Below are positions 17,952-35,612 of a stretch of DNA of 64,000 nucleotides, one piece after another. A program made the translations under genes and the position numbers. How positions within the stretch are numbered: position 1 is the first letter of the stretch; each line of letters opens with the position of its first letter. This DNA comes from Candidatus Heimdallarchaeota archaeon (GTDB lineage: Archaea; Asgardarchaeota; Heimdallarchaeia; JABLTI01). The notes under the pieces are model-generated. The model saw only the letters and a program-made list of their open reading frames with translations. It was not told the origin of the DNA and searched no databases. The DNA lies in contig JABCTZ010000037.1 of assembly GCA_018238155.1 (NCBI GenBank), forward strand, positions 1 through 64,000, in the 5' to 3' direction.

Positions 17952-18668
17952 CTATTTTTTACTGCGTTTTGATTTTGGCAGATACTCTATTGTTTTCCCA
18001 GTAACTATAGTTCCATCTTCCATTTCTAATGAAATTAGTTTCCCACATTTCTCAGGGCAACCTCGTTCACATCTTGGCGTCCACCAGGTAAACAAAGCAG
18101 GAGCAGCATCATTTACTAAATAAAATATCATCTGAGCAAGCCGACGAATCTCCCATTGAGCACGAGAGCAAATGCGAAAGTTGAAGAAATTCCAAAGAGA
18201 TCGAGCATTCATAGTCATTACTATTGCTGTTTTTGTAGCATTTGGTAAAAGATATCTTGAGTCTTCTAATTCAATTCCTAATTCATCCAGCTGTTTTCGA
18301 GCATCTATTGATTGCTGCAGAAAATCTTCGGCTATTTTTCGTGCTTTGGAGTTCTCAAGGATGGAATCTGGAATCACTGCCCAATCTTTCCCACCAATTT
18401 CCAATGGGTCAGAATATCTTTGACTTTCTTGTGAAAAAGATGCCATTCGATGTCTTACAAGTTGATGACTTGTTACTCGAGACACACCTGAAATTCTAAA
18501 AGTGAAATTAACATGTTCTGCTACAGATTCATGCCCAGAATCAATGACACGTTTGATTATATCTTCGTTTGTTGGTTCGTTTAAAATTACTTTTTTCTTA
18601 CCACGACACATTTTTATGGCAACTTCAGCTAATTTTTCATTTGTTGCACTAAGTAATTCAACTTTCAT
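17952..18668 (-). CDS. thyX: FAD-dependent thymidylate synthase
   Basis: 'GHESVAEH', ThyX motif 'RHRMASFSQESQRY', 'AQWEIR'. Confidence 0.96.
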   Translation of the reverse strand: MKVELLSATNEKLAEVAIKMCRGKKKVILNEPTNEDIIKRVIDSGHESVAEHVNFTFRISGVSRVTSHQLVRHRMASFSQESQRYSDPLEIGGKDWAVIPDSILENSKARKIAEDFLQQSIDARKQLDELGIELEDSRYLLPNATKTAIVMTMNARSLWNFFNFRICSRAQWEIRRLAQMIFYLVNDAAPALFTWWTPRCERGCPEKCGKLISLEMEDGTIVTGKTIEYLPKSKRSKK

Positions 18669-19161: not shown

Positions 19162-19734
19162 CTAATGACTAGGTTGGTATAAATTGCCTTTATTCATTAT
19201 ATCATAATATTTCTCTTGGAAATACTCGATTGAAGTATCAATGATTTTTAATGCTTGCTCTTTTCCTTCCCATCCCTGAACTTCAGTTTTCTTCCCCTTC
19301 TCTAGTTTCTTGTATTCTCTAAAGAATTCTTCAACCTCGAGTAATTGATGTTTTGGCACCCAATCCAATGAATTTGCTTCATCCATTCTAGGATCGTTAT
19401 GAGCTACAGCAATGATTTTATCATCATCACCCATTTCATCTTTCATTCGTAATACTCCTATAGGTCGAGCTGTAACAAGACATCCTGGGAAAGTTGGTTC
19501 TGTAATTAATACCATTATATCTAAAGGATCTTTATCATCACCCAATGTACGTGGAATGAATCCATAAGAAATTGGAAAAACTACAGATGAATACAAAACA
19601 CGATCAAGATAAATAGCCATAATTTCTTTATCAAATTCAAATTTATTCTTTGAACCTTGAGGTGTTTCAATTACTGCATAGACTATTTCAGGAGGGTTAG
19701 GTCCTGGTTTAACATCTGTCCACAAATTTGGCAT
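19162..19734 (-). CDS. ppa: Family I inorganic pyrophosphatase
   Basis: 'YGFIPRTLGDDKDPLD', 'DDKIIAV', 'FFREYKKLE'. Confidence 0.96.
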   Translation of the reverse strand: MPNLWTDVKPGPNPPEIVYAVIETPQGSKNKFEFDKEIMAIYLDRVLYSSVVFPISYGFIPRTLGDDKDPLDIMVLITEPTFPGCLVTARPIGVLRMKDEMGDDDKIIAVAHNDPRMDEANSLDWVPKHQLLEVEEFFREYKKLEKGKKTEVQGWEGKEQALKIIDTSIEYFQEKYYDIMNKGNLYQPSH

Positions 19735-20116: not shown

Positions 20117-20590
20117 TTATCCAAGCGCTTCCCATGTTGCATATTTTTCCACATAAAGTTTAGCTTTTCGTTCGAATTCTTTAACACTATTTTTGAACTC
20201 TTTTGCTGCGGTAGTGTTTAACGGATCGTCTGGATTGGGATTGGATAATAAAAATCGTAATGATTCCACAATATCAACTAAATTACTTGCTGGGGTCCAA
20301 TCCTTTCCTAAAATACCTACACAAATTCTATCTTTGAAAATATTTGGATGCCAGATAGGAGTTAAAACTTTCACTTTTGGTGGTTTAAAAGGAAATGACC
20401 TTGGTATATGTATTTCAAATTGGAATACACCGCCAGAATATAAACCGGTTCCAATCATGAACCCTCTCCAAACTCTAGTGTTTCCATTTAAAGGAGTGAA
20501 GTTTGGTTCCTCTTTCTTCATTTCCCCCGATTCAATAGCTAATCTTGCCCAAAAGTCGTCCTCACTGAGTTCCATTTGATTTTTCCTCAT
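20117..20590 (-). CDS. Ubiquitin-conjugating enzyme E2 (UBC family)
   Basis: 'YSGGVFQFEIHIPRSFPFKPPKV', HPN motif and catalytic Cys in 'WHPNIFKDRICVGILGKDWTPA', 'PNPDDPLN'. Confidence 0.95.
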   Translation of the reverse strand: MRKNQMELSEDDFWARLAIESGEMKKEEPNFTPLNGNTRVWRGFMIGTGLYSGGVFQFEIHIPRSFPFKPPKVKVLTPIWHPNIFKDRICVGILGKDWTPASNLVDIVESLRFLLSNPNPDDPLNTTAAKEFKNSVKEFERKAKLYVEKYATWEALG

Positions 20591-21157: not shown

Positions 21158-23302
21158 TTAACGAACTTTGGACCCATTAGGTACTTTTCTCAATGGTGTT
21201 AATATTGATATTTCAGGGTCAGCAGCAGCTGCTAACAGCATACCATTAGACTCTACACCACGAATTTTGGCTGGTTCTAGATTAGCAACTATTACTATTT
21301 GCTTTCCAACCAATTCATCTGGCTTATATCGTTCAGCAATACCTGCAACAATTTGTCTTTCCTCTGTACCAATATCAACAATAATCTTCAGTAGTTTTTT
21401 CGTTCCATCTATAGGTTCTACAGATTTAATAGTAGCAACTCTAAGATCTAATTGCTGAAAGTCTTTAAAGGGAATAAGTTCTTTTGTCATTTTTTCATCA
21501 GCCTTTGATTCTTTTTTCTTCTTCTTTTTAGGTTTAGCCTTTTTCTTAACCTCTTCGGAGGGAGCTAATTGTGGATTTTGTTTTATTAATTCTTTAACAG
21601 ATTCTCCACCCCATTCCAATCCAAGTTTTATTATTTGTTCGAGTTCAATTTTCTGGAATAATGGTACAAGCTCTTTGGAAATGTTATGATTATCAGAGAT
21701 TTTCTTTCCAACAGAATTCCAAGGTTGCTTATGAACATCTTCTTTTAATTGTAATAATTCGAATATTTTTTCTGCAGCAAATGGAATATAGGGTGCTAAA
21801 AGCACTGCCAATCCTCTACAACATTGAGCACAAATATTCAAAGTTGTAGCAACACGATCCTTCTTATTATCCTTCCAATCTGCCCATGGTTTCTTTGTTT
21901 GGAAATATCGATTACATTCACGTGCAAAGTCAAAAATGGTTAGAATTGTTCTTTGGAATTCAAATTTTCGCATCTCAGCATCTGCTTTCTTTGAAGTATC
22001 AATTAAAGCATTGATCATATCTTTGTCCTCTTTTTCAAGAGAACACGCTTTTGGAATTTTCCCATCGAAGTAACGATTAACAAATGTCAATGTTCTGTGA
22101 ATGAAATTTCCAAGTATATCTGCAAGATCACCGTTAACACTGTCACGAAACTCTGACCAAGTAAAATCTGTATCGTGTCTTTCCGGAGCAATTTTCATTA
22201 AGTAATAGCGCCAGAAATCAGCAGGAAATAACTCTAAAGCTGTATCAGTAAAGACACCTATTTTTTTGCTAGAAGAGAACTTTGTTTTTTCGTAGTTTAA
22301 CCATTGGAAAGCTTTAACGTAATCAGCTAGTACAAAACCATCATTAGCTCCTATCAAAGTAGCTGGGAACGTTATGGTATGGAAGGGTACATTATCCTTT
22401 CCAATAAAGTTAACAATGTAAGTATCAGTTTCTTTCCAGAATTTTTTCCACAGATTGGGATCTCCTTGTTGTTTAGCCCATTCTTTTGAAATGGAAATAT
22501 AACCAATTGGTGCATCAAACCAAACATAGAAGACTTTGTCACGGTATCCGTCCAGAGGAATTGGTACTCCCCATTTTATATCTCGTGATATGCTGCGAGG
22601 TCTTAGCCCATCTCTTATCCAACTATTAGAAATTGAAAGAGTTGTTTTAGGCCATTCTTGATGAGAATCAATCCATTCTTTTATTCGACCTTCCAAACTT
22701 CTCAAGTCTATGAATAGATGTTTACCTGAGCGAATCTCAGTATTATTTTTCCCACAAATGATACAAATAGGATTAATTAGATCTATACCATCAAGTACTT
22801 TTGAGCAATTTTCACATTGATCGCCTCTTGCATGTTCATATTTGCAATTTGGACAAGTTCCAACAACATAACGATCAGGCAAATTACGTTGACAATTTTT
22901 GCAGAAGAGTGATTGTATCTCTTTTTCCTCAATAAATCCATTTTTGTAAAGCTTCAAAAATAAATGTTGAGTCATTTCAATATTTTCTGGAGTATGAGTT
23001 CTACTGAACAGATCAAAAGATAAACCAAATCGTTCGTAGATATCTTTTTGTTTTTTGTGCATTATTTCAACAAATTCTTCGACAGGTATTCCTGCTTCTA
23101 ATGCTGAAACTTCAGCTGGGGTTCCATGATCATCTGTACCACATACTGCTAGAACTTCTTCTCCCCTTTGTCTCAAATACCTAGCTAATATATCAGCTGG
23201 TAAAAGAGAGGATACTAAGTTCCCGAGATGTTTTACAGTGTTTACGTAGGGCAAGGCACTTGTAATTAGATACCGTTTTTTCTTGTCAGACACTTTGAAC
23301 AC
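21158..23302 (-). CDS. metG: Methionyl-tRNA synthetase with C-terminal tRNA-binding OB domain
   Basis: 'ITSALPYVN..HLGN', Zn knuckles, 'YVWFDAPIGY', 'KFSSS', C-terminal 'ANLEPAKIRGVESNGMLLA'. Confidence 0.97.
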   Translation of the reverse strand: MFKVSDKKKRYLITSALPYVNTVKHLGNLVSSLLPADILARYLRQRGEEVLAVCGTDDHGTPAEVSALEAGIPVEEFVEIMHKKQKDIYERFGLSFDLFSRTHTPENIEMTQHLFLKLYKNGFIEEKEIQSLFCKNCQRNLPDRYVVGTCPNCKYEHARGDQCENCSKVLDGIDLINPICIICGKNNTEIRSGKHLFIDLRSLEGRIKEWIDSHQEWPKTTLSISNSWIRDGLRPRSISRDIKWGVPIPLDGYRDKVFYVWFDAPIGYISISKEWAKQQGDPNLWKKFWKETDTYIVNFIGKDNVPFHTITFPATLIGANDGFVLADYVKAFQWLNYEKTKFSSSKKIGVFTDTALELFPADFWRYYLMKIAPERHDTDFTWSEFRDSVNGDLADILGNFIHRTLTFVNRYFDGKIPKACSLEKEDKDMINALIDTSKKADAEMRKFEFQRTILTIFDFARECNRYFQTKKPWADWKDNKKDRVATTLNICAQCCRGLAVLLAPYIPFAAEKIFELLQLKEDVHKQPWNSVGKKISDNHNISKELVPLFQKIELEQIIKLGLEWGGESVKELIKQNPQLAPSEEVKKKAKPKKKKKKESKADEKMTKELIPFKDFQQLDLRVATIKSVEPIDGTKKLLKIIVDIGTEERQIVAGIAERYKPDELVGKQIVIVANLEPAKIRGVESNGMLLAAAADPEISILTPLRKVPNGSKVR

Positions 23303-23463: not shown

Positions 23464-26400
23464 TTACTTTACAACTGTTATGGTTGGAGTTTGAACTACT
23501 CCAATATGAGTATCATTAATTATACCTACTGTATCTACTATCCTACAATAAAATGAAACCGTACGTTGTGTATAGGACCTGAATAATCCCTTTCTCATTG
23601 AAGGAGGTTTCCACTCGAAAGATTCCAAAACAAAATTCTCTTCTTTTTTCACTCTAGTTTTTAATCGATATCTCTTAATTAACTTGACTTTAGCGTTCTT
23701 AGTAAATTGCAAGATATGTATTTCTCTAATGTCACTATGTGCTTTGAATTGTAATTTTGGAGTTATTTCAGTAACATAGTTACTACGAATTCTTGATTTA
23801 AGTGGTGGATTTCCAAGCAAACTAAAATTAATTAGCTTAGATAAAGGAGGTGAGACTTTGAGTGAGGCAGATGTACTAGCTCCTCTGCCATTAAAGACAC
23901 AAAGTAAATGCCATTTGGATGAACACATACTAAGGGGTATTACCACAGGCATATCAATTGTGAGACTTTTTCTTGAGAACCGAGATTTCTTTTCATATAA
24001 TTTAATTATCCCTCTTTGTGAGAGACCCCACAATGTCAATTTACCTCGAGTATTGCTTTTCGAGATAGATGCCTTGACTTTAACAAAAATCTCTCCAACA
24101 GGATTTGGAGATGTTGTTAGATTTGTTATGGAATGGGTTTTATTTTTTGGTACTTTGACCTTTGTACATGATTTATGGGCAGTGGCTAGGATTTTTCTAC
24201 TCTTTCCATCTCGAACAATAAATCTTAGCTTGAAATCACCATGATAATTATTGAGTTGAATTGGAATTGGAAGGTAACAAAAATCAACCAATGATGCTTT
24301 TTCCAAATTAATAGACTCTTGAAAAGCTTTTCGTCTTGCACCTGATCCCTTAGTCAGAGGAACAAATTCTGCTTCTATTTTAACTGGATGTGAAATTTTG
24401 GATTGGAGTATTGATCGGCGCCATTTTATCTTTATAACCGGAACAATTAGTGAATAATCAACTTTAGATGGAAAGTTATGTATTGAAACATTTTTGACAA
24501 ATTTAGATTCTTTGAAGAATTCTTCTCGTTGGAATGTTGGTGTAGCAGCGACTATTTTTGTAGAACCTCTAGCTGTTCGATTTGAAGTTTTAGATGTGCG
24601 TTTCTTCTTAGAAGCATTTGTTTTTGTGCTTCTTGAAATTCGAGGTTTTGGTAACACTGCACCTTGAGTACGATATCTTGAACTTGACGCTGTAGATGCA
24701 TAAGCCTGCACTTTTCTTTTCGAAGATTTTTGCAAAGATTTTGATCTAGAAGATGATTTCCTTTTGTATCCCTTTGTTTTAATAGGAGCTTTTTTTCTAG
24801 CTAGCTTCTTAGGTTTTGAAGATGAGCGTTTCTTCTTTGGAGTTTTCTTTTTGGCTTCTTTCACTTTTCTTTTCTTTGGTGGTGACCTAGTTCGTGCTGG
24901 AAGCTTCTTTTTTGATTTGACGGGTCTAATAGTTGCTACAGGTTTTGATTTCATAGAAGGAGTAGAAGGTCGTCTAATAGGTCGAGCAGCTAAAGGTTTT
25001 GATGGACGTCCAGTAATGGGTTTTGGTGGTGGTTTTTTAGCTTTTTCAAGAAGCTTTAATCTCTCGAGACGTTTTTTCTCTAACACTTTTTCTCTTTTTA
25101 TTTTCTCGCGTTGTATTTTAGCTGATTGTATTTGTTTCACTTTAAGTCGTTGACGTTCCTTTGACATTACTTTTTTACGCCTTGTCCTAGAATCAGATTG
25201 AAGTTTGCGAGCAATTGCACTTCGTGAATTATCTGCAGTTCTAACAGGTTTTGCAGCTTTTGTTTCAACGAATTCAGTTAATGATTTATCAGGAAGACCT
25301 AACATCTCGCTAAAAACTCTTCTAGGTTTACCATTCATTAAACTCAAACTTTTGATAAGATTTGTAATGTTATTGTGATTTTGTTCATATAAATAAAACA
25401 TAAATGTAGCTGCAGAAATAGGAGGAGCTATTCGAGCTGTCCCCCACAACATAATAAGAAGTGGAGCAAGTTCACTTTCACTCATTTGTAGTTCAGTTAG
25501 CTCTGGTTTTAACCAGATAAGTAAGGCACGCAAAGATTCATAGATTTTCCCAGGAGGTCCTCCTGTTTCTGGGTTGTGATTATAATATTTAGCGAAAAGC
25601 CCGCCAGATGATTCGATACCAGGGTCTCCTTGGAATTTTGCGAACATACCAAAGTTTACTGCTCTTTTGCGATGTTCAAAAATGGTATTTCCCTTTATTT
25701 CAGGAATTGGTGTACCAGCCCTAACCATCTTAGCACCTTTCAATGCTAATGCTTGTAGTAATAAAATGATTGAAATTCGAATGCTTTGATCATATTGTGC
25801 ATCAAAGAATCGACATTCAATAGTTCCATAGACTGTATATGGGTAAACATCTACGTACCTGTCATCAGGAATTTCTTTTCGAACATGCCTCGAGAATTGT
25901 GTCTGGGTATTAGATGATTCAACGTGCGGTAAATAATCGGGCATATTCGGTCCCAATTGCCCGGAATTTTCTTTTAACCTAAAACTTCGAATACTATCAG
26001 GAGCTAAAACCAAAGTTCGTCCATCATCACCCTTCTTAAGAATAATACGTCCAGCAGGTTTCCCATTTACAAACGGAGAAGTATTAGATAAAGCTATAAG
26101 ATGTGGTATATATGCTCTAATCATGTTATAAGCAGCACTTTTTTCTGCCTTGTTTTTAAATCCACCAAGATGATGATGTTCTCCGCAAGTTACTCCAGCA
26201 CGATATTCTGATTGATAAGGATTAAATCCCAAAGCTTGAATATTATATCCTTTTGTAATTGATTGAGAAGCAGCTAAATAGAGAGTGTTTATCCACCAAT
26301 CCATTTCTTCAATATACTCACAGGGAGGTGTCACTAATTCTAATAACCAAGTAATTTGTGATATATTTGGATCAGGACCAAATACATTGATTGCAATAGA

Positions 26401-26724
26401 TTTACCGTTGAGCTCATACTCTATTTGAACATAGCGAATCATTTTACCATGTCTTTCTACATCCTTTCTAGAGACACGCTTGATTTTTTTCCGAATATAG
26501 TCAGGGACATTTTTAGTGCTACTTGTTAAAGATTTTATGAAACTTAATGCCCCATTAAACATCTGATCCCAGACTGCAACTAGTTCTTTTCCATCCTCCA
26601 GAATTTCTCCGCGTTTATCAGTAATGAAATTTTCAACCTCTAAACCATGAGTAAAAGGCAACTTACGTAAGGTACTAGTAGCAGAATTTGCTGAATCTGA
26701 TTTTGTTTTACTGTTTTTACTCAT
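23464..26724 (-). CDS. GCS2/YbdK-like carboxylate-amine ligase domain fused to a Lys/Arg-rich linker and basic beta-rich C-terminal domains
   Basis: 'THGLEVE', 'LELVTPPC', 'TCGEHHHLG', 'LIALSNTSPF', 'YGTIECRFFDAQ' match the GCS2 catalytic pattern. Residues ~490-730 are low-complexity and basic. Confidence 0.8.
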   Translation of the reverse strand: MSKNSKTKSDSANSATSTLRKLPFTHGLEVENFITDKRGEILEDGKELVAVWDQMFNGALSFIKSLTSSTKNVPDYIRKKIKRVSRKDVERHGKMIRYVQIEYELNGKSIAINVFGPDPNISQITWLLELVTPPCEYIEEMDWWINTLYLAASQSITKGYNIQALGFNPYQSEYRAGVTCGEHHHLGGFKNKAEKSAAYNMIRAYIPHLIALSNTSPFVNGKPAGRIILKKGDDGRTLVLAPDSIRSFRLKENSGQLGPNMPDYLPHVESSNTQTQFSRHVRKEIPDDRYVDVYPYTVYGTIECRFFDAQYDQSIRISIILLLQALALKGAKMVRAGTPIPEIKGNTIFEHRKRAVNFGMFAKFQGDPGIESSGGLFAKYYNHNPETGGPPGKIYESLRALLIWLKPELTELQMSESELAPLLIMLWGTARIAPPISAATFMFYLYEQNHNNITNLIKSLSLMNGKPRRVFSEMLGLPDKSLTEFVETKAAKPVRTADNSRSAIARKLQSDSRTRRKKVMSKERQRLKVKQIQSAKIQREKIKREKVLEKKRLERLKLLEKAKKPPPKPITGRPSKPLAARPIRRPSTPSMKSKPVATIRPVKSKKKLPARTRSPPKKRKVKEAKKKTPKKKRSSSKPKKLARKKAPIKTKGYKRKSSSRSKSLQKSSKRKVQAYASTASSSRYRTQGAVLPKPRISRSTKTNASKKKRTSKTSNRTARGSTKIVAATPTFQREEFFKESKFVKNVSIHNFPSKVDYSLIVPVIKIKWRRSILQSKISHPVKIEAEFVPLTKGSGARRKAFQESINLEKASLVDFCYLPIPIQLNNYHGDFKLRFIVRDGKSRKILATAHKSCTKVKVPKNKTHSITNLTTSPNPVGEIFVKVKASISKSNTRGKLTLWGLSQRGIIKLYEKKSRFSRKSLTIDMPVVIPLSMCSSKWHLLCVFNGRGASTSASLKVSPPLSKLINFSLLGNPPLKSRIRSNYVTEITPKLQFKAHSDIREIHILQFTKNAKVKLIKRYRLKTRVKKEENFVLESFEWKPPSMRKGLFRSYTQRTVSFYCRIVDTVGIINDTHIGVVQTPTITVVK

Positions 26725-26766
26725 TAATCATTCATACCCTACTTTTGTGTTAAGTTTCTTGGTAAT

Positions 26767-28200
26767 TCATTTTGGTTTTTGATGTAAAAGATAATCAAAC
26801 AAATATTGTTGAGTAAAAGGATAACTCTCTTCTTGTTCTTCTAGAATCTGTGTTATCTTAGATGCAAAATCCATGAGTGTTGTAACTTCAGAGATATTTA
26901 ATTTTCCGCCTTTAAGTTGCTGAATCACAAAACTTCGACGAATATCAATAATATCTGCAAATATGTTAAGAATGTACAGCTCTTCATAGACGTTATTTCC
27001 AGAAGGATCAAACAATGCATCCGTATTAAAATAAACACCAGAAATTGAACATAATTGAGCAATAATATCAGAAAGTCTTGCTTGAGTTTTAACTCTCAGT
27101 ATTTTATCAAAATCTTTTCTTGTAACTTTTGATTTTTCAATACCAACGCGGTTAATCACTTTTTGGGGCCAATAAATTTTCAGCATACGCAGAGCATTTA
27201 GTCCTAGAACATATCTTATATGATTAAAGGTTACTCCTAGTTCTTTTGCTTTTTCTGAAAAAATGAAAGTAAGATGATCACTTGCTTGTGGTACACTAAA
27301 ATAATTATGATCAGTACCATACATTGCAGATAAATGCCAATCCTCTACGAGATCGATACAATTTTTATAGAAAATTTCACAATCATCGCCTCTCATCCCT
27401 GATGTTTCAGTTTTGATATTTGAATCACCAAGAATTTCATACATACCTTTAGTTGTATAGTCAAAACCAAAATGCCCGAGTATTATTGTAAAATCGTCAT
27501 TCTTTGCTCGTTTTCTAACTTCCATTGTTACTTGATGTATCTCTTGAGCTGTTTGATAATTTTGAACATCAAAAATAACTGGCAATTTATAATCAACTGC
27601 AGTACGAACAATTTCAAAAATATTTTCACTGACAATATCATTTATCCAGTTCTCAGAAAGAGGGTGGAGTTTTAATCCTCTTGCACCATATTCAACACAT
27701 CTGAGGATTTCATCAATTGCTTTTTCCTTGTCATTTGGATCTACTCGACAAAAGGGAACTAACCTAGAACCATACTCAAGTGTTTGTGCACGAGTGATAA
27801 TATAATTATTCGAACGGATAAAATGAGGGGATGTCTTTGCATGGAGAGTATCATGCAATGGAAAAGTAACTATTTTATCTGCAAACCAACCAATATTCTG
27901 CGTAGTTCTCGTATCTCGAAAGATGTCTTGCTGTAATTTTGTTGCAGGCATCGTGAAATCATTAGCTTTTTCTGGCAAACTAAATGCATAATCCTCGGGA
28001 TAGCTTGTGATTCTTCTATGAACATCGAATTTTAATTTCTCATAGAAGTCTATATGATCCTTCGGTCTAACAATTCTATAATCTTTACCTTTTCCACTTA
28101 CGACTGATTCTTTACCCAAATGTGTGTGAGTATCCACTACATTTAGTTTTAGCGGTCTTTTCTTAGGATCATCTTTATCATATATAATTATCATTAGCAT
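26767..28200 (-). CDS. Metal-dependent amidohydrolase (amidohydro_2-like TIM barrel) with a C-terminal extension
   Basis: 'VVDTHTHLG', 'GARGLKLHP', 'ILGHFG', 'YGTDH', 'LGLNALRML'. Confidence 0.85.
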   Translation of the reverse strand: MLMIIIYDKDDPKKRPLKLNVVDTHTHLGKESVVSGKGKDYRIVRPKDHIDFYEKLKFDVHRRITSYPEDYAFSLPEKANDFTMPATKLQQDIFRDTRTTQNIGWFADKIVTFPLHDTLHAKTSPHFIRSNNYIITRAQTLEYGSRLVPFCRVDPNDKEKAIDEILRCVEYGARGLKLHPLSENWINDIVSENIFEIVRTAVDYKLPVIFDVQNYQTAQEIHQVTMEVRKRAKNDDFTIILGHFGFDYTTKGMYEILGDSNIKTETSGMRGDDCEIFYKNCIDLVEDWHLSAMYGTDHNYFSVPQASDHLTFIFSEKAKELGVTFNHIRYVLGLNALRMLKIYWPQKVINRVGIEKSKVTRKDFDKILRVKTQARLSDIIAQLCSISGVYFNTDALFDPSGNNVYEELYILNIFADIIDIRRSFVIQQLKGGKLNISEVTTLMDFASKITQILEEQEESYPFTQQYLFDYLLHQKPK

Positions 28201-28346: not shown

Positions 28347-29387
28347 TTAACCAAAGAATGATTTAGCTAATAACCATTCTTCTTCGGGAACTATTTTTCT
28401 CTTAGCAACTGCTTTTTCAATAGGGACATCAACAATACGAGTGCCTTGTAGACTAGCCATACGACCAAACTTCTCATTGTGAATTAGTTCAGCAGCTTTT
28501 GCACCATATCTTAAACCTAAATATCGATCATATGCTGTAGGTGGTCCCCCTCTTTGAATATGACCTAAAGTAATTCCACGAACGAGAAGTTTAGTACGTT
28601 TTGTGATTTCCTCTGCGAGAAATTCCCCTACTTTAAGATTAGCAAGCAAAATATTTCCAAATGAATCTGTTCCAGCTTTATCAATTTTTTCTTTCATTTC
28701 TGGAAAAACAACGCCTTCGGCAACACAGACAATGCTATATGTTCTCTTACCTTCATGCCTTTTTTTCAACATAGAACATATTTCATCAATTGAAAATTCA
28801 AATTCGGGTATAATGATTGCAGTTGCATTTCCTGCCATCCCAGCTTCTAATGCAATCCATCCGGAATGTCGTCCCATTAATTCCAAAACGAAAACACGAT
28901 GGTGAGATTTTGCAGTAGTTCTCAATCTATCAATTGCTTCCATTGCTATATTTATTGAAGTATCGAAACCAAAAGTTTGATCTGTTGCTTCTAAATCATT
29001 ATCAATAGTTTTTGGTACACCAACAACATTAGCTCCTTTTTCATTCAGGATTTTTGCTACACCTAAAGTATCATCTCCACCACATGCTGCAAATGCATAG
29101 ATATTCAATTTTTTCAATGTAGCAAGAATTTTCTCAAATCCATTCTCAACTTTTCTTGGATTTGTACGAGATGAACCTAGAATGGTTCCACCCTCTTGAA
29201 CAATTTCTTTAACGCTTTCCAAAGATAGATTTTCAGTTAAGCCCTCAATCAATCCTTTCCAACCATCTTGAAATCCAACAACGTCATACCCAAATTTTAT
29301 TGCCGTTCTTGTAAAACCAGCTATTACAGGATTTAATCCTGGAGCATCGCCACCACTAGTTAAAATACCAATTTTTTTTGCCATCAT
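28347..29387 (-). CDS. pfkA: 6-phosphofructokinase (PfkA family)
   Basis: 'LTSGGDAPGLN', 'GGTILGSSR', 'PKTIDND', 'ELMGRHSGW', 'LGHIQRGG'. Confidence 0.95.
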   Translation of the reverse strand: MMAKKIGILTSGGDAPGLNPVIAGFTRTAIKFGYDVVGFQDGWKGLIEGLTENLSLESVKEIVQEGGTILGSSRTNPRKVENGFEKILATLKKLNIYAFAACGGDDTLGVAKILNEKGANVVGVPKTIDNDLEATDQTFGFDTSINIAMEAIDRLRTTAKSHHRVFVLELMGRHSGWIALEAGMAGNATAIIIPEFEFSIDEICSMLKKRHEGKRTYSIVCVAEGVVFPEMKEKIDKAGTDSFGNILLANLKVGEFLAEEITKRTKLLVRGITLGHIQRGGPPTAYDRYLGLRYGAKAAELIHNEKFGRMASLQGTRIVDVPIEKAVAKRKIVPEEEWLLAKSFFG

Positions 29388-29568: not shown

Positions 29569-30738
29569 ATGGTAAGTTATAATTATCGTTGGAAAAGTAA
29601 GGACCAAAAAGAAATTGCTGAAGAAAATCTTATTATGTTTATTAAAAAGCAAATAGCAAATTACAGTCCATTTTACCGTGAATGGTTTAAACAACATGAA
29701 ATCGATGTATCTAAAATAAAAACAATTTCTGATGTACGAAAAATACCAATAACAACAAAAGCTGAACATTCATCAGACCCCTATTCTTTTATTTTAAAAC
29801 CATATATGCCGGAATGGTGGGAGTGTAAATTTGAAACAAAACCTCTTTCAAGATTACAATCGTTTAAATATTGGTTGAAATCACAAAACAAAAGTTACTT
29901 TCGAGAAATTTTTAGCAAAGAACCTATGAAAGATGAAGAAAAAACAATTACTGAAGCTTCTAACGATTGGTTACCAGTTCATTTCCACACAACAGAAAGT
30001 GCAAAAGACCCACGTTTGATAGCATACACAAAACGTGATTTAAAGAAGAATATACCGGAAATTGCAGCTCAAATTTATTCCACAGGGTTTAGATCATATT
30101 GGGAAGTTTTTAGTTTAATCCCTGCATCTCCATCAATCAATTTCTTCCAAAGTGTTTGGGCACCTCTTTCAGTTGGAGGAGGATCTTTCTTTACTTGTGG
30201 TGAAAATATTACTTCAATTGATACCCAAATTGAATTAGTAAATAAAATTACTTTCGAAGTATTCTTAGGTAAACCAACATTTGTACTCAAGTGGCTAAAA
30301 GCAGCTATTATTAAACTCAAGAAAAACAAAATTTCTCCAATAACTAGTGTAAAATTATGTATCTTATCAGGTGAAACTTTAAAGTCGAAAGATAAAACTA
30401 AAATTAAAGAACTATTTTCTCAACTTGGTTCGGAACCAAGTATCATTGAAAATTATTCTAATAATCGTACAAAGGTATCATTTACGGAATGTTCAGAAAA
30501 TTCAGGCATTCATTTAAATCCAAGATATTTCTTCTGGGAAGTATTAGATCAAAAGACCTTAGAACCTGTTGAAGAAGGAGAAAGTGGGTATCTCTGTTTT
30601 AGTCATATTGATTGGCGTGGGACAGTGTTTTTACGTTATAACACGGGTGACCTTATTGGAGGTCTAGAATGGAAAAAATGCGATTCGTGTGGATTGACAA
30701 TGCCAATAATCAAAGGACCAATTACACGTAAAATGTAA
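29569..30738 (+). CDS. Phenylacetate-CoA ligase (PaaK)-like adenylate-forming domain, degenerate
   Basis: 'YSPFYREWF', 'IPITTK', 'FLRYNTGDL', 'CDSCG'. The SSGTTG loop is replaced and the C-terminal domain is absent. Confidence 0.75.
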   Translation: MVSYNYRWKSKDQKEIAEENLIMFIKKQIANYSPFYREWFKQHEIDVSKIKTISDVRKIPITTKAEHSSDPYSFILKPYMPEWWECKFETKPLSRLQSFKYWLKSQNKSYFREIFSKEPMKDEEKTITEASNDWLPVHFHTTESAKDPRLIAYTKRDLKKNIPEIAAQIYSTGFRSYWEVFSLIPASPSINFFQSVWAPLSVGGGSFFTCGENITSIDTQIELVNKITFEVFLGKPTFVLKWLKAAIIKLKKNKISPITSVKLCILSGETLKSKDKTKIKELFSQLGSEPSIIENYSNNRTKVSFTECSENSGIHLNPRYFFWEVLDQKTLEPVEEGESGYLCFSHIDWRGTVFLRYNTGDLIGGLEWKKCDSCGLTMPIIKGPITRKM

Positions 30739-31585: not shown

Positions 31586-31930
31586 TTGACAAAAGATCTA
31601 TCTATTCATATTAAAATCTGGTTTGAAAGAAAAGATGAATCTGTTATTGGACCAGGTCGAATGGCAATTTTAGATGCAATAGATCAAACAGGTTCTCTGA
31701 CTCAAGCAACAGAAATGTGTAATATATCCTTTCGAAAAGCTTGGAAACTTATCAATGAAATTAATGATAAAATGGAACAACCTGTAATTTCTACCGCACG
31801 AGGAGGTAAAGGAGGAGGAGGTGGAACAACTCTTACAGAATACGGGAAGAAGTTGTTAATGCAATACAAAAAAATTCAGTCTATATTAGAAGGTGTGGTA
31901 AGTAATCCGGATATCTGGTCAGAAATATAA
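31586..31930 (+). CDS. ModE N-terminal-type HTH regulator (no molybdate-binding domain)
   Basis: 'IGPGRMAILDAIDQTGSLTQA..ISFRKAW...RGGKGGGGGTTLTEYG'. Confidence 0.9.
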   Translation: MTKDLSIHIKIWFERKDESVIGPGRMAILDAIDQTGSLTQATEMCNISFRKAWKLINEINDKMEQPVISTARGGKGGGGGTTLTEYGKKLLMQYKKIQSILEGVVSNPDIWSEI

Positions 31931-31955: not shown

Positions 31956-33080
31956 CTACTGCTCATTTTCTAAATCATCATCTTCCAAACGCTTTCGTTC
32001 AGCGTTTAATCTATCAAGGAAACTAAATCTACTAGATTCTTTTTTCTTTGGTGGAGGTGATTCAACGACTACTTGTTGTTCAACGGGAGGTTGTGAAATA
32101 ATAGGGCGTTCAACAGGAGGTTGTGGAATAATGGGACGTTCAACGGGAGGTTGTGGAATAACAGGTTGTTCCATTATTGGAGGAGTAATTGTGCTTATGG
32201 GTTGAGTTGCTGTTTTCTCAGGTTCTGTAGGAGGTTCAATAACAGGTTGTTCATTTAAATCGGCAGCAGTTGGAGCTAATGATATTGGTTCAGTAAAGGA
32301 AGGTTTAGCAGACTCTTTTTGCTCAACTACACCTACAATGGGAGGAGTTACTATACTTGCCTGAGGTACTATTGGAGCTGTTTGATTTATTGGCAGAATT
32401 GTATTTGCCATAATATTATCTACCGTTGGAGCTTCAATTGAAGGTACTCTTCCAATACCCAAAGGTTGAGCAGACAAGTGTTGAGAACCAGAAATTGTAT
32501 GAACTTCAGGTTGCTGTGGATGAGTAGTATCTACCATTTCAGTAGAAGGCATCGTCATTCCTTTCTTATCTAAAATCATCAACTTACTAATTGCTTCGAA
32601 TGTTTCTGTAATGCCAATCCCTTTCAGGCTTGTTGTAGGGATGTAAAAAGAGATATTGAGTCTTTTTGCGGTTTCTAAACCTTCTTCATTCAGTACTTCA
32701 CGAAGCTCTTCAACATCATTCTTTGTACTAACAAGAACCTTTGGGATATTGATATCCTCTAATTTGTTTATCCATCGATCAAGAGAATCGAGAGTATCTC
32801 TTCGTGTAGTATCATAACAAAGGATGGCACCATGTGCACCTTTTGTGAAGATATTACTTATTTCGGCAAATTGATCTTGACCACCAATATCACAAATCTG
32901 TAACGTTACTTCTTCTCCATCAACAACTAGTTTTTTGCTAAAGAAATCAGCACCAATAGATAATTTGTAGCTTCCAAAGAATTCACCGGTAGTTAGGTAA
33001 TTACAAATAGATGTTTTACCAATTCCACCATCACCAAGGACTACAACTTTGAAGAAGGTCGCCACTAAATATGTCTCCAT
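31956..33080 (-). CDS. Rab-like small GTPase with a long Pro-rich C-terminal tail
   Basis: G1 GDGGIGKT, 'SIGADF', G3 DIGGQ, G4 TKND, then a ~200-aa P/Q/E-rich tail. Confidence 0.92.
   Translation of the reverse strand: METYLVATFFKVVVLGDGGIGKTSICNYLTTGEFFGSYKLSIGADFFSKKLVVDGEEVTLQICDIGGQDQFAEISNIFTKGAHGAILCYDTTRRDTLDSLDRWINKLEDINIPKVLVSTKNDVEELREVLNEEGLETAKRLNISFYIPTTSLKGIGITETFEAISKLMILDKKGMTMPSTEMVDTTHPQQPEVHTISGSQHLSAQPLGIGRVPSIEAPTVDNIMANTILPINQTAPIVPQASIVTPPIVGVVEQKESAKPSFTEPISLAPTAADLNEQPVIEPPTEPEKTATQPISTITPPIMEQPVIPQPPVERPIIPQPPVERPIISQPPVEQQVVVESPPPKKKESSRFSFLDRLNAERKRLEDDDLENEQ
32081..32170. repeat. 30-bp tandem repeat x3 encoding E(R/Q)P(I/V)I(P/S)QPP(V/M) units
   Basis: caacgggaggttgtgaaataatagggcgtt / caacaggaggttgtggaataatgggacgtt / caacgggaggttgtggaataacaggttgtt. 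Confidence 0.9.
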
Positions 33081-34148: not shown

Positions 34149-35612
34149 ATGGTTGAGAAAATAATTGACATTTCAGTAATGAATGTCGGTGAAATTGATG
34201 GGCGCGCTTATATGAATAAGCGTGATATGGAAAGAATTGGTGTCGATGATTTTGATATCATTCAGCTAATTAATGAATTTGAAGACAGCTGTGCAGTACA
34301 AGTTCTTGAAAATGACGAAGTGGAAGCAGATACTGTTGCAGTAGATAACGGAATTCTCGATTCCGCGAACATTAGCGATGGCGATAGGGTGAAAGTAAGA
34401 AAAGCCCAAATAAAAGATGAAGCAATAACTAGAGTGAAGTTTGGTATTGAACCTCTTGAAGGTCAACCTGTTGAAGAATGTATAACATACATTTTAGAGA
34501 ATTTTGATGAATTAACATCAGTAATAAGAAATCGACCTGTATATCGTAATTTACAAATTGATTGGCCAGATGCTGGATGTGGACACGTCAAAATAACCTT
34601 TTTAGATGCAGATCCAGATATGGAAGGCGACGAAGTTGGTATCATTGATCCTTCAGGAAAAGAAGTAGAAGTTCAATTAGTACCTGCAAGTGAAATGTCC
34701 TTCAATGCAGTTTTGATTCTCGACGTATCAGGCTCAATGAGTAAAATTGATATGATTGTCAAAGGAACTGGAACGGCAGTTGAAGGGTTAAGAAGAGGTC
34801 TTAAAGGAAGTAAAGACTTAGACAAACTCTTAGATGAATTCGAAGAGAAGAAAGTATCTCGAATTAAAGGTGCTGCCTTAGCAACTCTATTGTTCCTTTC
34901 ACAAAAAGTTAGTCGTGGATGGGGTGAACAATTATCTATCCTCAGTTTTGCAGGGGATGTTGATGTTTTTGAAATTGAATATGGTTCTGGTGGACCCACG
35001 CCGGTCATAGCATGCACAGGTCAAGCAAAATCAGCTGGTCTAGAAATCATTGCTGATTATGTTTCCAAGAGATGTTCCAAAGGTGGTGGACTTACATTCA
35101 TGAGTGGTGCAATTCAACAAGCTTATGAAATGACAAAGCAATTCGAACCAAATTCAATAACTGGTAAGATGAATCCAGCAATGATTATTCTTCTAACTGA
35201 CGGTCAACCAAACAAAGGAAACGGTCTTGGAATAAACCCAGTTCCTGTTGCACGCAAATGTGCTCGAGATTATCCAAATACTATTCTCTATACCATTGGT
35301 CTTGGTGAAGCAGATAAAAGACTACTCAAGAAATTATCAGAAATTGGTAGAGGAGAATTTTATGAAGCAAATGATCTTGGTGAATTAACTAAATTCTACG
35401 ACCTCTTAGCAAGACGATTTATGATCGCCTTAAAAACTGAACCAACTGAACTTGTTGAACAAGTTCCAGAAGACTTCTTTGATACTGTTGCTGATGACGA
35501 AGAAAGCGATGAAGTCGAATTAGCTCTTGAAGAAGACTACGGTGGTGCAGGCGAAGATATAGAAGAATTCGAAGAAGAATTCGTAGAAGAAATCGAAGAA
35601 GAAGAAAATTAA
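34149..35612 (+). CDS. Cdc48/VAT N-domain-like + von Willebrand A domain protein with an acidic tail
   Basis: N-term 'GRAYMNKRDMERIGVDDFDII...DNGILDSANISDGDRVKVRKA' resembles the Cdc48 double-psi barrel. MIDAS 'DVSGS', 'GLT', 'LLTDG', 'YTIGLG'. Confidence 0.8.
   Translation: MVEKIIDISVMNVGEIDGRAYMNKRDMERIGVDDFDIIQLINEFEDSCAVQVLENDEVEADTVAVDNGILDSANISDGDRVKVRKAQIKDEAITRVKFGIEPLEGQPVEECITYILENFDELTSVIRNRPVYRNLQIDWPDAGCGHVKITFLDADPDMEGDEVGIIDPSGKEVEVQLVPASEMSFNAVLILDVSGSMSKIDMIVKGTGTAVEGLRRGLKGSKDLDKLLDEFEEKKVSRIKGAALATLLFLSQKVSRGWGEQLSILSFAGDVDVFEIEYGSGGPTPVIACTGQAKSAGLEIIADYVSKRCSKGGGLTFMSGAIQQAYEMTKQFEPNSITGKMNPAMIILLTDGQPNKGNGLGINPVPVARKCARDYPNTILYTIGLGEADKRLLKKLSEIGRGEFYEANDLGELTKFYDLLARRFMIALKTEPTELVEQVPEDFFDTVADDEESDEVELALEEDYGGAGEDIEEFEEEFVEEIEEEEN

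Follow-up and report, generated by a model that had tools for sequence, protein, structure and literature searches.

What does an archaeon do with an enzyme that resembles a small amide-forming ligase, is more than a thousand residues long and carries a long, strongly basic extension? This question is raised by a 64,000-nucleotide stretch of DNA from Candidatus Heimdallarchaeota archaeon (contig JABCTZ010000037.1, positions 1 to 64,000; the whole of this stretch is called the window below), in which the gene for such a ligase (P0001) follows that for a putative metal hydrolase (P0002). A preliminary description of the locus, made from the sequence alone, took the two genes as a pair in which a ligase tethered to a polyanion and a hydrolase could write and erase a modification. 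The ligase and the hydrolase in fact belong to a set of three. Together with a gene for a protein that joins a Cdc48_N-like head to a vWA domain with a metal-ion-dependent adhesion site (MIDAS), they are co-inherited, linked, co-duplicated and co-evolving across Asgard archaea. As for what the trio does, we favour, tentatively and with less than even confidence, a reversible system that would modify carboxylates of proteins by forming amides and in which the MIDAS would serve for docking. The features on which the argument depends are the following.

26767-28200, minus strand: hydrolase (P0002, 477 residues), an Amidohydro_2 (PF04909) TIM-barrel metal hydrolase, with the barrel at about residues 1-345 (27166-28200) and a variable C-terminal domain at residues 346-477.
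23464-26724, minus strand: ligase (P0001, 1086 residues), 42 bp downstream of P0002.
25285-26724, minus strand: catalytic domain of the ligase, residues 1-480, with a YbdK/GCS2 glutamine-synthetase-like fold.
24505-25284, minus strand: polybasic, low-complexity linker or arm of the ligase, residues 481-740, recognised by composition (net charge +76).
23464-24504, minus strand: three tandem immunoglobulin-like (Ig-like) beta-sandwiches of the ligase in a structural model, residues 741-1086, plus the stop codon (net +44).
34149-35612, plus strand: Cdc48N-vWA(MIDAS) protein (P0125, 487 residues), the third partner of ligase and hydrolase.
35469-35609, plus strand: acidic C-terminal tail of P0125, residues 441-487 (net -26).

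Three genes inherited together

For the phyletic survey, 400 genomes of the phylum, representing 85 genera, were searched in full. The ligase domain was matched in 252 of these genomes, the hydrolase in 251 and the Cdc48N-vWA protein in 247, and each gene is present in 47 of the 85 genera. The presence or absence of the three genes is identical in all 30 listed families; for instance, all three occur in every genome of families f1 (11/11), f13 (5/5) and f14 (6/6) and in none of those of f3 (0/31), f5 (0/12) and f12 (0/19).

The genes also stay near one another. Linkage is retained in every lineage inspected, with variation in gene order, and the constant third gene in the neighbourhoods of five other lineages encodes a protein of about 430-450 residues with Cdc48_N and vWA domains. 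In the Hod neighbourhood, the hydrolase gene leads into the ligase gene with an overlap of 4 bp, and the Cdc48N-vWA gene comes next. The ligase gene converges on the Cdc48N-vWA and hydrolase genes in the Loki and Jord neighbourhoods, an arrangement that is found in Freya with two genes inserted, while in Thor it lies about seven genes away from adjoining vWA and hydrolase genes. Two complete paralogous trios are present in families f13 and f14 (in genome G116, for example, at 2.917-2.926 Mb and 2.376-2.383 Mb). Finally, trees of the ligase, the hydrolase and the vWA protein, each with 23-24 loci, share a deep split into types A and B and agree in their clade topology. Type A comprises f21, Jord, Loki/Freya, Hod and the genus of the window, whose sister is the Hod-labelled clade in each of the three trees; f8, Thor/f31 and the second copies of f13 and f14 make up type B.

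Failure of the ligase and the hydrolase to be conserved together had been set beforehand as one of the observations that would count against the preliminary description. Family-level presence, linkage, co-duplication and matching trees are what was found, and consequently the idea of a functional pair does not fall on this point. The two genes do not form a complete unit, however, as the Cdc48N-vWA gene at 34149-35612, which had been remarked on by itself, had been missed as a partner.

The ligase and its catalytic core

All of the ligase motifs quoted in the preliminary description are present in P0001, namely HGLEVE (residues 26-31), ELVTP (129-133), GEHHH (181-185), SPF (216-218) and TIECRFFD (301-308). 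The Pfam GCS2 profile (PF04107) matches above its threshold (26.6 bits; cut-off 21) and covers residues 175-225 only (51 residues), and the NCBIfam equivalog models for YbdK and glutamate-cysteine ligases (GCLs) reach at best 52 bits, against cut-offs of 176-437. An AlphaFold model of residues 1-490, made with an alignment of 56 homologues, has a predicted local distance difference test score (pLDDT) of 90.7. Its top PDB matches in Foldseek are the YbdK structures 1tt4 and 1r8g, with an E value of 1e-14 and a template-modelling (TM) score of 0.75 by target; below them rank plant GCL, then E. coli GshA, then Dop/PafA (E about 1e-5 to 1e-4) and finally the glutamine synthetases. The profile of the 56 homologues also finds YbdK first among PDB sequences (E 4e-11), and the ExE, GxHxH/SP(F/Y) and GT(I/V)E.R..D blocks line up in the resulting alignment, at a sequence identity of 16-18%. 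Motifs, model and structure search thus agree with the earlier assignment of a GCS2/YbdK-fold enzyme with a multidomain extension that is unusual for it. The kinship with PafA and Dop that had been pointed out holds for the glutamine-synthetase superfold, which is common to them all, but the fold of P0001 is nearer to YbdK and GCL in the Foldseek ranking.

Conservation was assessed in 22 ligase domains drawn from every architecture found. Invariant in all of them are G27, E29, E31, Y103, D118, E129, P133, P134, C135, E140, W144, H185, P207, S216, R249, L250, N253, P266, T301, I302, E303, R305, D308, Q310, Q324, R352 and G359, and little or no variation is seen in the metal and ATP ligands E29, E31, E129, H183/H185, E303, R305 and D308. 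This invariance shows an intact catalytic core for ATP-dependent activation of a carboxylate, with all residues that the YbdK/GCS2 reaction requires. In the reaction of YbdK and GCS2 enzymes, ATP turns a carboxylate into an acyl phosphate, and attack by an amine then yields an amide. Two signatures are special to the family of P0001, ELVTPPC and R-L-x-x-N (R249-L-x-x-N253). The cysteine of the first, Cys135 (26320-26322, minus strand), lies close to the metal ligand Glu129 and is kept in 22/22 domains.

The vWA partner, a natural fusion and the wider ligase family

P0125 has a Pfam VWA match of 37.5 bits, and its orthologues in other lineages carry unmarked precomputed CDC48_N matches. The residues of the MIDAS (D192-x-S194-x-S196, T316 and D351) do not vary among 24 vWA sequences, and the vWA protein is the slowest-evolving of the three. 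In known vWA proteins, the MIDAS binds an Asp or Glu carboxylate of the ligand.

An indication of how this protein might relate to the ligase comes from the metagenomic protein P0303 (962 residues, L034:10001-12889), in which residues 1-406 align to residues 11-424 of P0125 (E 2e-15) and a ligase domain occupies residues 451-907. This natural fusion argues for physical contact between the vWA protein and the ligase when they work.

The ligase family is otherwise found almost entirely under Asgard labels. There are about 140 long homologues (944-1416 residues), and nearly all of the named ones are labelled as Asgard (Heimdall-, Hod-, Loki-, Thor-, Jord-, Freya- and Sigynarchaeota); shorter matches are fragments or forms of about 550 residues, and again the named ones are almost all Asgard. 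When 1.84 billion representatives were searched exhaustively with the profile, 98 proteins reached E <= 1e-30, P0303 among them. They also include giant forms of 2232-3804 residues, with the ligase domain near the C-terminus (P0279, P0287, P0291, P0295, P0298, P0299 and P0304); the Pfam search gave no confident domain for the N-terminal two-thirds of P0279 and P0287. Other forms, of about 1250 residues, end in a double zinc ribbon. VWA and Amidohydro_2 genes are present in the loci of a 1250-residue and a 2740-residue form, and the P0287 locus is one that has them. Three distant forms occur in metagenome-assembled genomes labelled Thermoplasmata or Thermoplasmatota (L036, L037, which is the same as L033, and P0276), with the whole gene set in L037. 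Since only 3/401 sampled Thermoplasmatota genomes were matched, the system is centred on Asgard archaea, the rare outliers reflecting either gene transfer or mis-binning.

P0303 sits at the end of its contig, next to genes for methylases, Mom, SLATT, TIR, QueC/QueF and TGT-like proteins, a setting with the look of a defence island. These neighbours, which include 7-deazaguanine genes, make it necessary to consider a conflict or defence system, in which a vWA-centred sensor would be coupled to the amide ligase and the hydrolase as effector or regulator, and the giant extensions would have arisen through an arms race. Restriction-modification methylases adjoin the trio in two short-form loci, architectures vary widely, giants included, and occurrence in Thermoplasmatota is sporadic, all of which would suit such a role. 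Nevertheless, within Asgard archaea the trio is clade-wide and mostly single-copy, with trees that follow the clades, which is unlike the patchy distribution of defence islands. A PADLOC search gave no hits, and the trio in the window is surrounded by housekeeping genes. A defence function is therefore very unlikely in our view.

The hydrolase and the case for a small molecule

The neighbour of the ligase had been described as a TIM-barrel amidohydrolase with HxH, KLHP, HFG and GTD motifs and an extra C-terminal domain, and Pfam and the motifs both bear this out. Amidohydro_2 (PF04909) matches residues 130-341 with 39.6 bits against a cut-off of 26.4. The metal-site motifs are H25/H27 (HxH), K177-L-H179-P, H243-F-G and G-T-D297, and across 38 homologues D23, H25, H27, K177, H179, D211, H243 and D297 are invariant. 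The roughly 130 C-terminal residues past the barrel are weakly conserved between clades. Searches of the PDB by sequence or profile gave marginal matches only (E 0.2-0.6), and the nearest solved sequences, both weak, are IDCase and gamma-resorcylate decarboxylase. A co-fold of the ligase domain and the hydrolase scored 0.00, a value that counts neither for nor against binding.

Both enzymes might thus serve a small-molecule pathway. In this case, the ligase would make a gamma-glutamyl-type or other amide metabolite, such as a thiol, an osmolyte or a cofactor precursor, the hydrolase would hydrolyse, decarboxylate or cyclise the same metabolite, and the vWA protein and the Ig module would only regulate or localise the enzymes. 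The nearest folds of the ligase, YbdK and glutamate-cysteine ligases, are in keeping with this, as is the fact that P0001 is the sole GCS2-family gene in its genome. The solved sequences nearest the Amidohydro_2 profile are small-molecule decarboxylases, short ligase forms free of the extension occur, and the local neighbours, genes for phosphofructokinase (PFK) and methionyl-tRNA synthetase (MetRS), are housekeeping ones. On the other hand, the ligase has an obligate, slow-evolving MIDAS partner that is fused to it in P0303, and it also occurs in giant multidomain forms. The low identity to YbdK and NCBIfam scores far under every equivalog cut-off set the family apart, as do its invariant loops (R249-L-x-x-N253 and C135). 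Moreover, the neighbourhoods inspected in other lineages retain neither a transporter gene nor a further biosynthetic gene beside the trio. We consider a small-molecule pathway, the chief rival of the reading that we favour, somewhat unlikely.

The arm and the Ig module

By charge, the ligase falls into three parts. The catalytic domain (residues 1-480) has a net charge of +10, the linker (481-740) contains 90 Lys and Arg residues against 14 Asp and Glu, and the C-terminal part (741-1086) is again basic. The linker includes a charged helical stretch at about residues 515-560, in addition to K/R/S/P-rich repeats. It is basic, disordered and K/R/S/P-rich as first described, with a length closer to 260 than to 240 residues. 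The basic, beta-rich nature of the C-terminal part was also verified, since a model of residues 727-1086 (pLDDT 91.5; predicted TM score 0.86) is all-beta and consists of three Ig-like sandwiches. Structure searches with this module (Foldseek, VIA-align and Atlas) returned generic beta-sandwich matches only, such as CARDB, FN3, MG domains and transglutaminase C-domains; the single close match in shape is the Atlas cluster of its own family (TM 0.72).

BLAST finds the C-terminal module solely inside the clade of the window. Profile-profile comparison with hhalign, however, joins it across clades with probabilities of 92-98.6% (own against mid-length forms, 97% over 306 columns; mid-length against long forms, 97.7%; long against Thor-type forms, 98.6%). 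This cross-clade homology shows the beta module to be ancestral. Its charge behaves differently. The net charge of ligase tails is +75 to +150 in the clade of the window; it ranges from about 0 to +98 in forms of the Hod, Loki and Jord types and from -4 to -26 in those of the Thor type. This pattern indicates that the basic charge is not ancestral but lineage-specific to the genus of the window. Thus, of the extension whose absence from homologues was to speak against the preliminary description, the C-terminal module is conserved and the basic charge is limited to one lineage.

These charges bear on a reading that follows from the preliminary description, in which DNA, RNA or acidic protein tails were suggested as the polyanion. 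In this reading the ligase would be tethered to nucleic acid, with the polybasic arm binding DNA or RNA and the ligase modifying chromatin or RNA-bound proteins. An arm with a net charge of +76 over 260 residues, its K/R/S/P-rich repeats and the further basic Ig domains would all fit such a role. The comparison with a histone H1 is apt for the K/S/P composition of the disordered stretch, but the Pfam scan of P0001 gave GCS2 only, with neither a linker-histone (winged-helix H1/H5) domain nor any other DNA-binding domain detected. Furthermore, the basic charge is confined to the genus of the window and fades or reverses elsewhere while the trio is unchanged. As Thor-type tails are acidic, tethering to a polyanion cannot be the general mechanism of the ligase family, and in the genus of the window the polyanion that was gained is a protein one, the acidic tail of the vWA partner itself. 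We therefore give a nucleic-acid tether little likelihood. Within the repeats of the linker, residues 615-621 (24862-24882, minus strand) read PPKKRKV, one residue off the nuclear-localisation signal of SV40; this resemblance is likely a chance effect of composition.

Charge pairing with the vWA tail

Charges were compared in trios from 26 loci, two of which are repeats of the same sites.

Genus of the window: ligase tail +77 to +120; vWA C-terminal tail of 41-56 residues, -24 to -29.
Loki/Freya type: ligase tail +38 to +93; short acidic vWA tail (AEEEEEYS), -4 to -7.
Hod, Jord and Thor types: ligase tail -24 to +55; essentially no vWA tail.

The vWA tail of 41-56 residues is limited to the genus of the window, where it ends in sequences such as ...EEDY, ...EDEY or ...EEEEN. 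Over eight clade means, the charges of the ligase tail and of the vWA tail have a Spearman correlation of -0.80 (p 0.02), the genus of the window standing at +104 and -26, respectively. With clades that are few and related, this pairing is a lead and not a proof. Since a polycationic arm arose in this genus alongside a polyglutamate-like tail on the vWA partner, the polyanion that pairs with the arm here is most likely the vWA tail, as tether or as substrate, rather than DNA.

Genes around the trio

In the window (about 33% G+C), the genes on either side of the hydrolase and ligase genes share their orientation, and the two open reading frames themselves were verified as the co-oriented minus-strand pair with a 42-bp gap that had been described.

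28347-29387, minus strand: PFK, co-oriented with the hydrolase, ligase and MetRS genes.
21158-23302, minus strand: MetRS, the fourth of the co-oriented genes.

Past the MetRS gene lies one for an E2 ubiquitin-conjugating enzyme (UQ_con, E 8e-33; 20117-20590, minus strand) and, beyond it, genes for inorganic pyrophosphatase (19162-19734) and ThyX (17952-18668). The interval between the hydrolase and vWA genes holds a Ras-like GTPase with a Pro-rich tail (31956-33080, minus strand) and a small helix-turn-helix protein (31586-31930, plus strand). An open reading frame of 389 residues (29569-30738, plus strand) has a weak match to AMP-binding, a family of adenylate-forming enzymes, with 27.3 bits against a cut-off of 29.9 and over the C-terminal part of that domain only.

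A small GTPase was considered as a fourth member of the set. The Ras-like gene of the window is only the sixth of 18 paralogue matches to the Loki neighbour, and the Hod neighbour is unmatched here; the GTPases beside the trio are therefore not orthologous between lineages, and the idea was rejected as chance. A beta-rich protein of about 90 residues is encoded divergently beside the hydrolase gene in Loki, Jord and Freya loci (L007:17202-17483, L008:16815-17087 and L005:20341-20676; 33-71% identity). It was not found in the genome of the window by a search with a three-row profile and may be a lineage-specific fourth component.

A possible mechanism

In the protein-directed reading that we favour, the substrate of the ligase would be a protein or peptide, not a free metabolite, and the enzyme would form an amide at one of its carboxylates. 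The vWA protein would dock on or beside the ligase and either present or hold the carboxylate-bearing target or read its unmodified state, and the hydrolase would undo the amide or process it further. On the flexible arm, the three Ig-like domains would serve as a block for scaffolding or targeting. We favour a protein or peptide as the target because the ligase has an obligate binding partner, a natural fusion with it, an Ig scaffold and giant multidomain relatives. In the same direction, the Ig module, the disordered arm, the giant forms and the zinc-ribbon form suggest a macromolecular context for the ligase.

Several points weigh against this reading, in which the substrate is assigned from sequence and gene context. 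The closest characterised relatives of the ligase, YbdK and the plant and bacterial GCLs, use free amino acids. Most Amidohydro_2 enzymes characterised so far are decarboxylases, lactonases or hydratases, which act on small molecules, and most are not amidases; for this reason, and because the nearest solved sequences are weakly matching decarboxylases, a role of the hydrolase as eraser or deamidase is something that we infer at most. The CDC48_N (PF02359) match of P0125 itself, at 31.4 bits, is under the cut-off of 35.1. Short ligase forms (about 470-580 residues) that lack the Ig module still keep the trio, so the core function can do without the arm and the Ig module; relocation of the module onto a neighbouring protein in these clades was considered and rejected, as a hidden Markov model of it matched nothing among the neighbours. 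Without the genus of the window, the charge correlation becomes -0.69 (p 0.09), and it rests mainly on one or two clades. Finally, related genomes are non-independent observations.

A more specific and more speculative form of the protein-directed reading, which we regard as unlikely, is that of a reversible protein-modification system of Asgard archaea that is independent of ubiquitin. The ligase would amidate Glu or Asp side chains or C-terminal carboxylates, or add amino acids to them, the hydrolase would remove the mark, and the MIDAS protein would read the free carboxylate. In the genus of the window, the Glu-rich vWA tail would then itself serve as substrate while bound to the polybasic arm, in a code like that of tubulin tails but written by an unrelated enzyme fold.

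Relation to known systems and significance

The ligase shares with YbdK and other GCS2 enzymes (PF04107; E. coli YbdK 1r8g, Salmonella 1tt4 and plant GCL 2gwc) a glutamine-synthetase-like fold and the ExE, E, HxH, SP(F/Y) and GT(I/V)E.R..D motifs, and because these motifs are conserved, the same ATP-dependent acyl-phosphate chemistry is expected. Unlike YbdK, it has a catalytic domain that is larger by about 110 residues, with family-specific invariant loops and Cys135, a 600-residue arm and Ig module, and obligate vWA and Amidohydro_2 partners, and it is nearly confined to Asgard archaea.

With PafA and Dop, the Pup ligase family of pupylation, the superfold is common (Foldseek E 3e-5 to 7e-5). 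There is a resemblance in logic too, in that a glutamine-synthetase-fold ligase would be combined with a possible reversing enzyme and with a partner that has a Cdc48-N-type substrate-binding head. The structural match is nevertheless weaker than that to YbdK, GCL or GshA (TM 0.37-0.55), and the ligase has no Pup_ligase Pfam match at E <= 0.1. In addition, the putative eraser is a TIM barrel and not a Dop paralogue, and no gene for a Pup-like tag, a proteasome or an AAA unfoldase is linked to the trio in six neighbourhoods.

The tubulin tail code, written by TTL/TTLL enzymes and edited by carboxypeptidases, offers an analogy only: an amide ligase and a metallohydrolase could likewise act on a Glu-rich C-terminal tail. 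TTL/TTLL enzymes have an ATP-grasp fold, however, whereas the ligase here is glutamine-synthetase-like, and modification of the vWA tail is purely hypothetical. The hydrolase, in turn, has the invariant TIM-barrel metal site (HxH, H, H and D) of Amidohydro_2 enzymes such as ACMSD, IDCase, gamma-resorcylate decarboxylase and LigI, but it differs from the solved members in its marginal similarity to them and in its extra variable C-terminal domain.

No description of the trio was found in the literature searched. New here are the fusion of the vWA protein to the ligase, the forms that are giant or carry a Thermoplasmata label, the phyletic match in numbers, and the pairing of a basic arm with an acidic tail in the genus of the window. 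The partners, the conserved residues and the natural fusion offer concrete constructs for testing. No known archaea are more closely related to eukaryotes than the Asgard archaea and, to our knowledge, clade-wide Asgard gene sets of unknown function are few. The trio would unite ATP-driven carboxylate amidation, a chemistry that is used elsewhere in Pup tagging and in tubulin tail codes, with a MIDAS docking domain and a Cdc48-N-type head. If it synthesises a metabolite, it would define an as yet unknown Asgard-specific compound; if its targets are proteins, the lineage from which eukaryotes arose would have a post-translational system of a new type.

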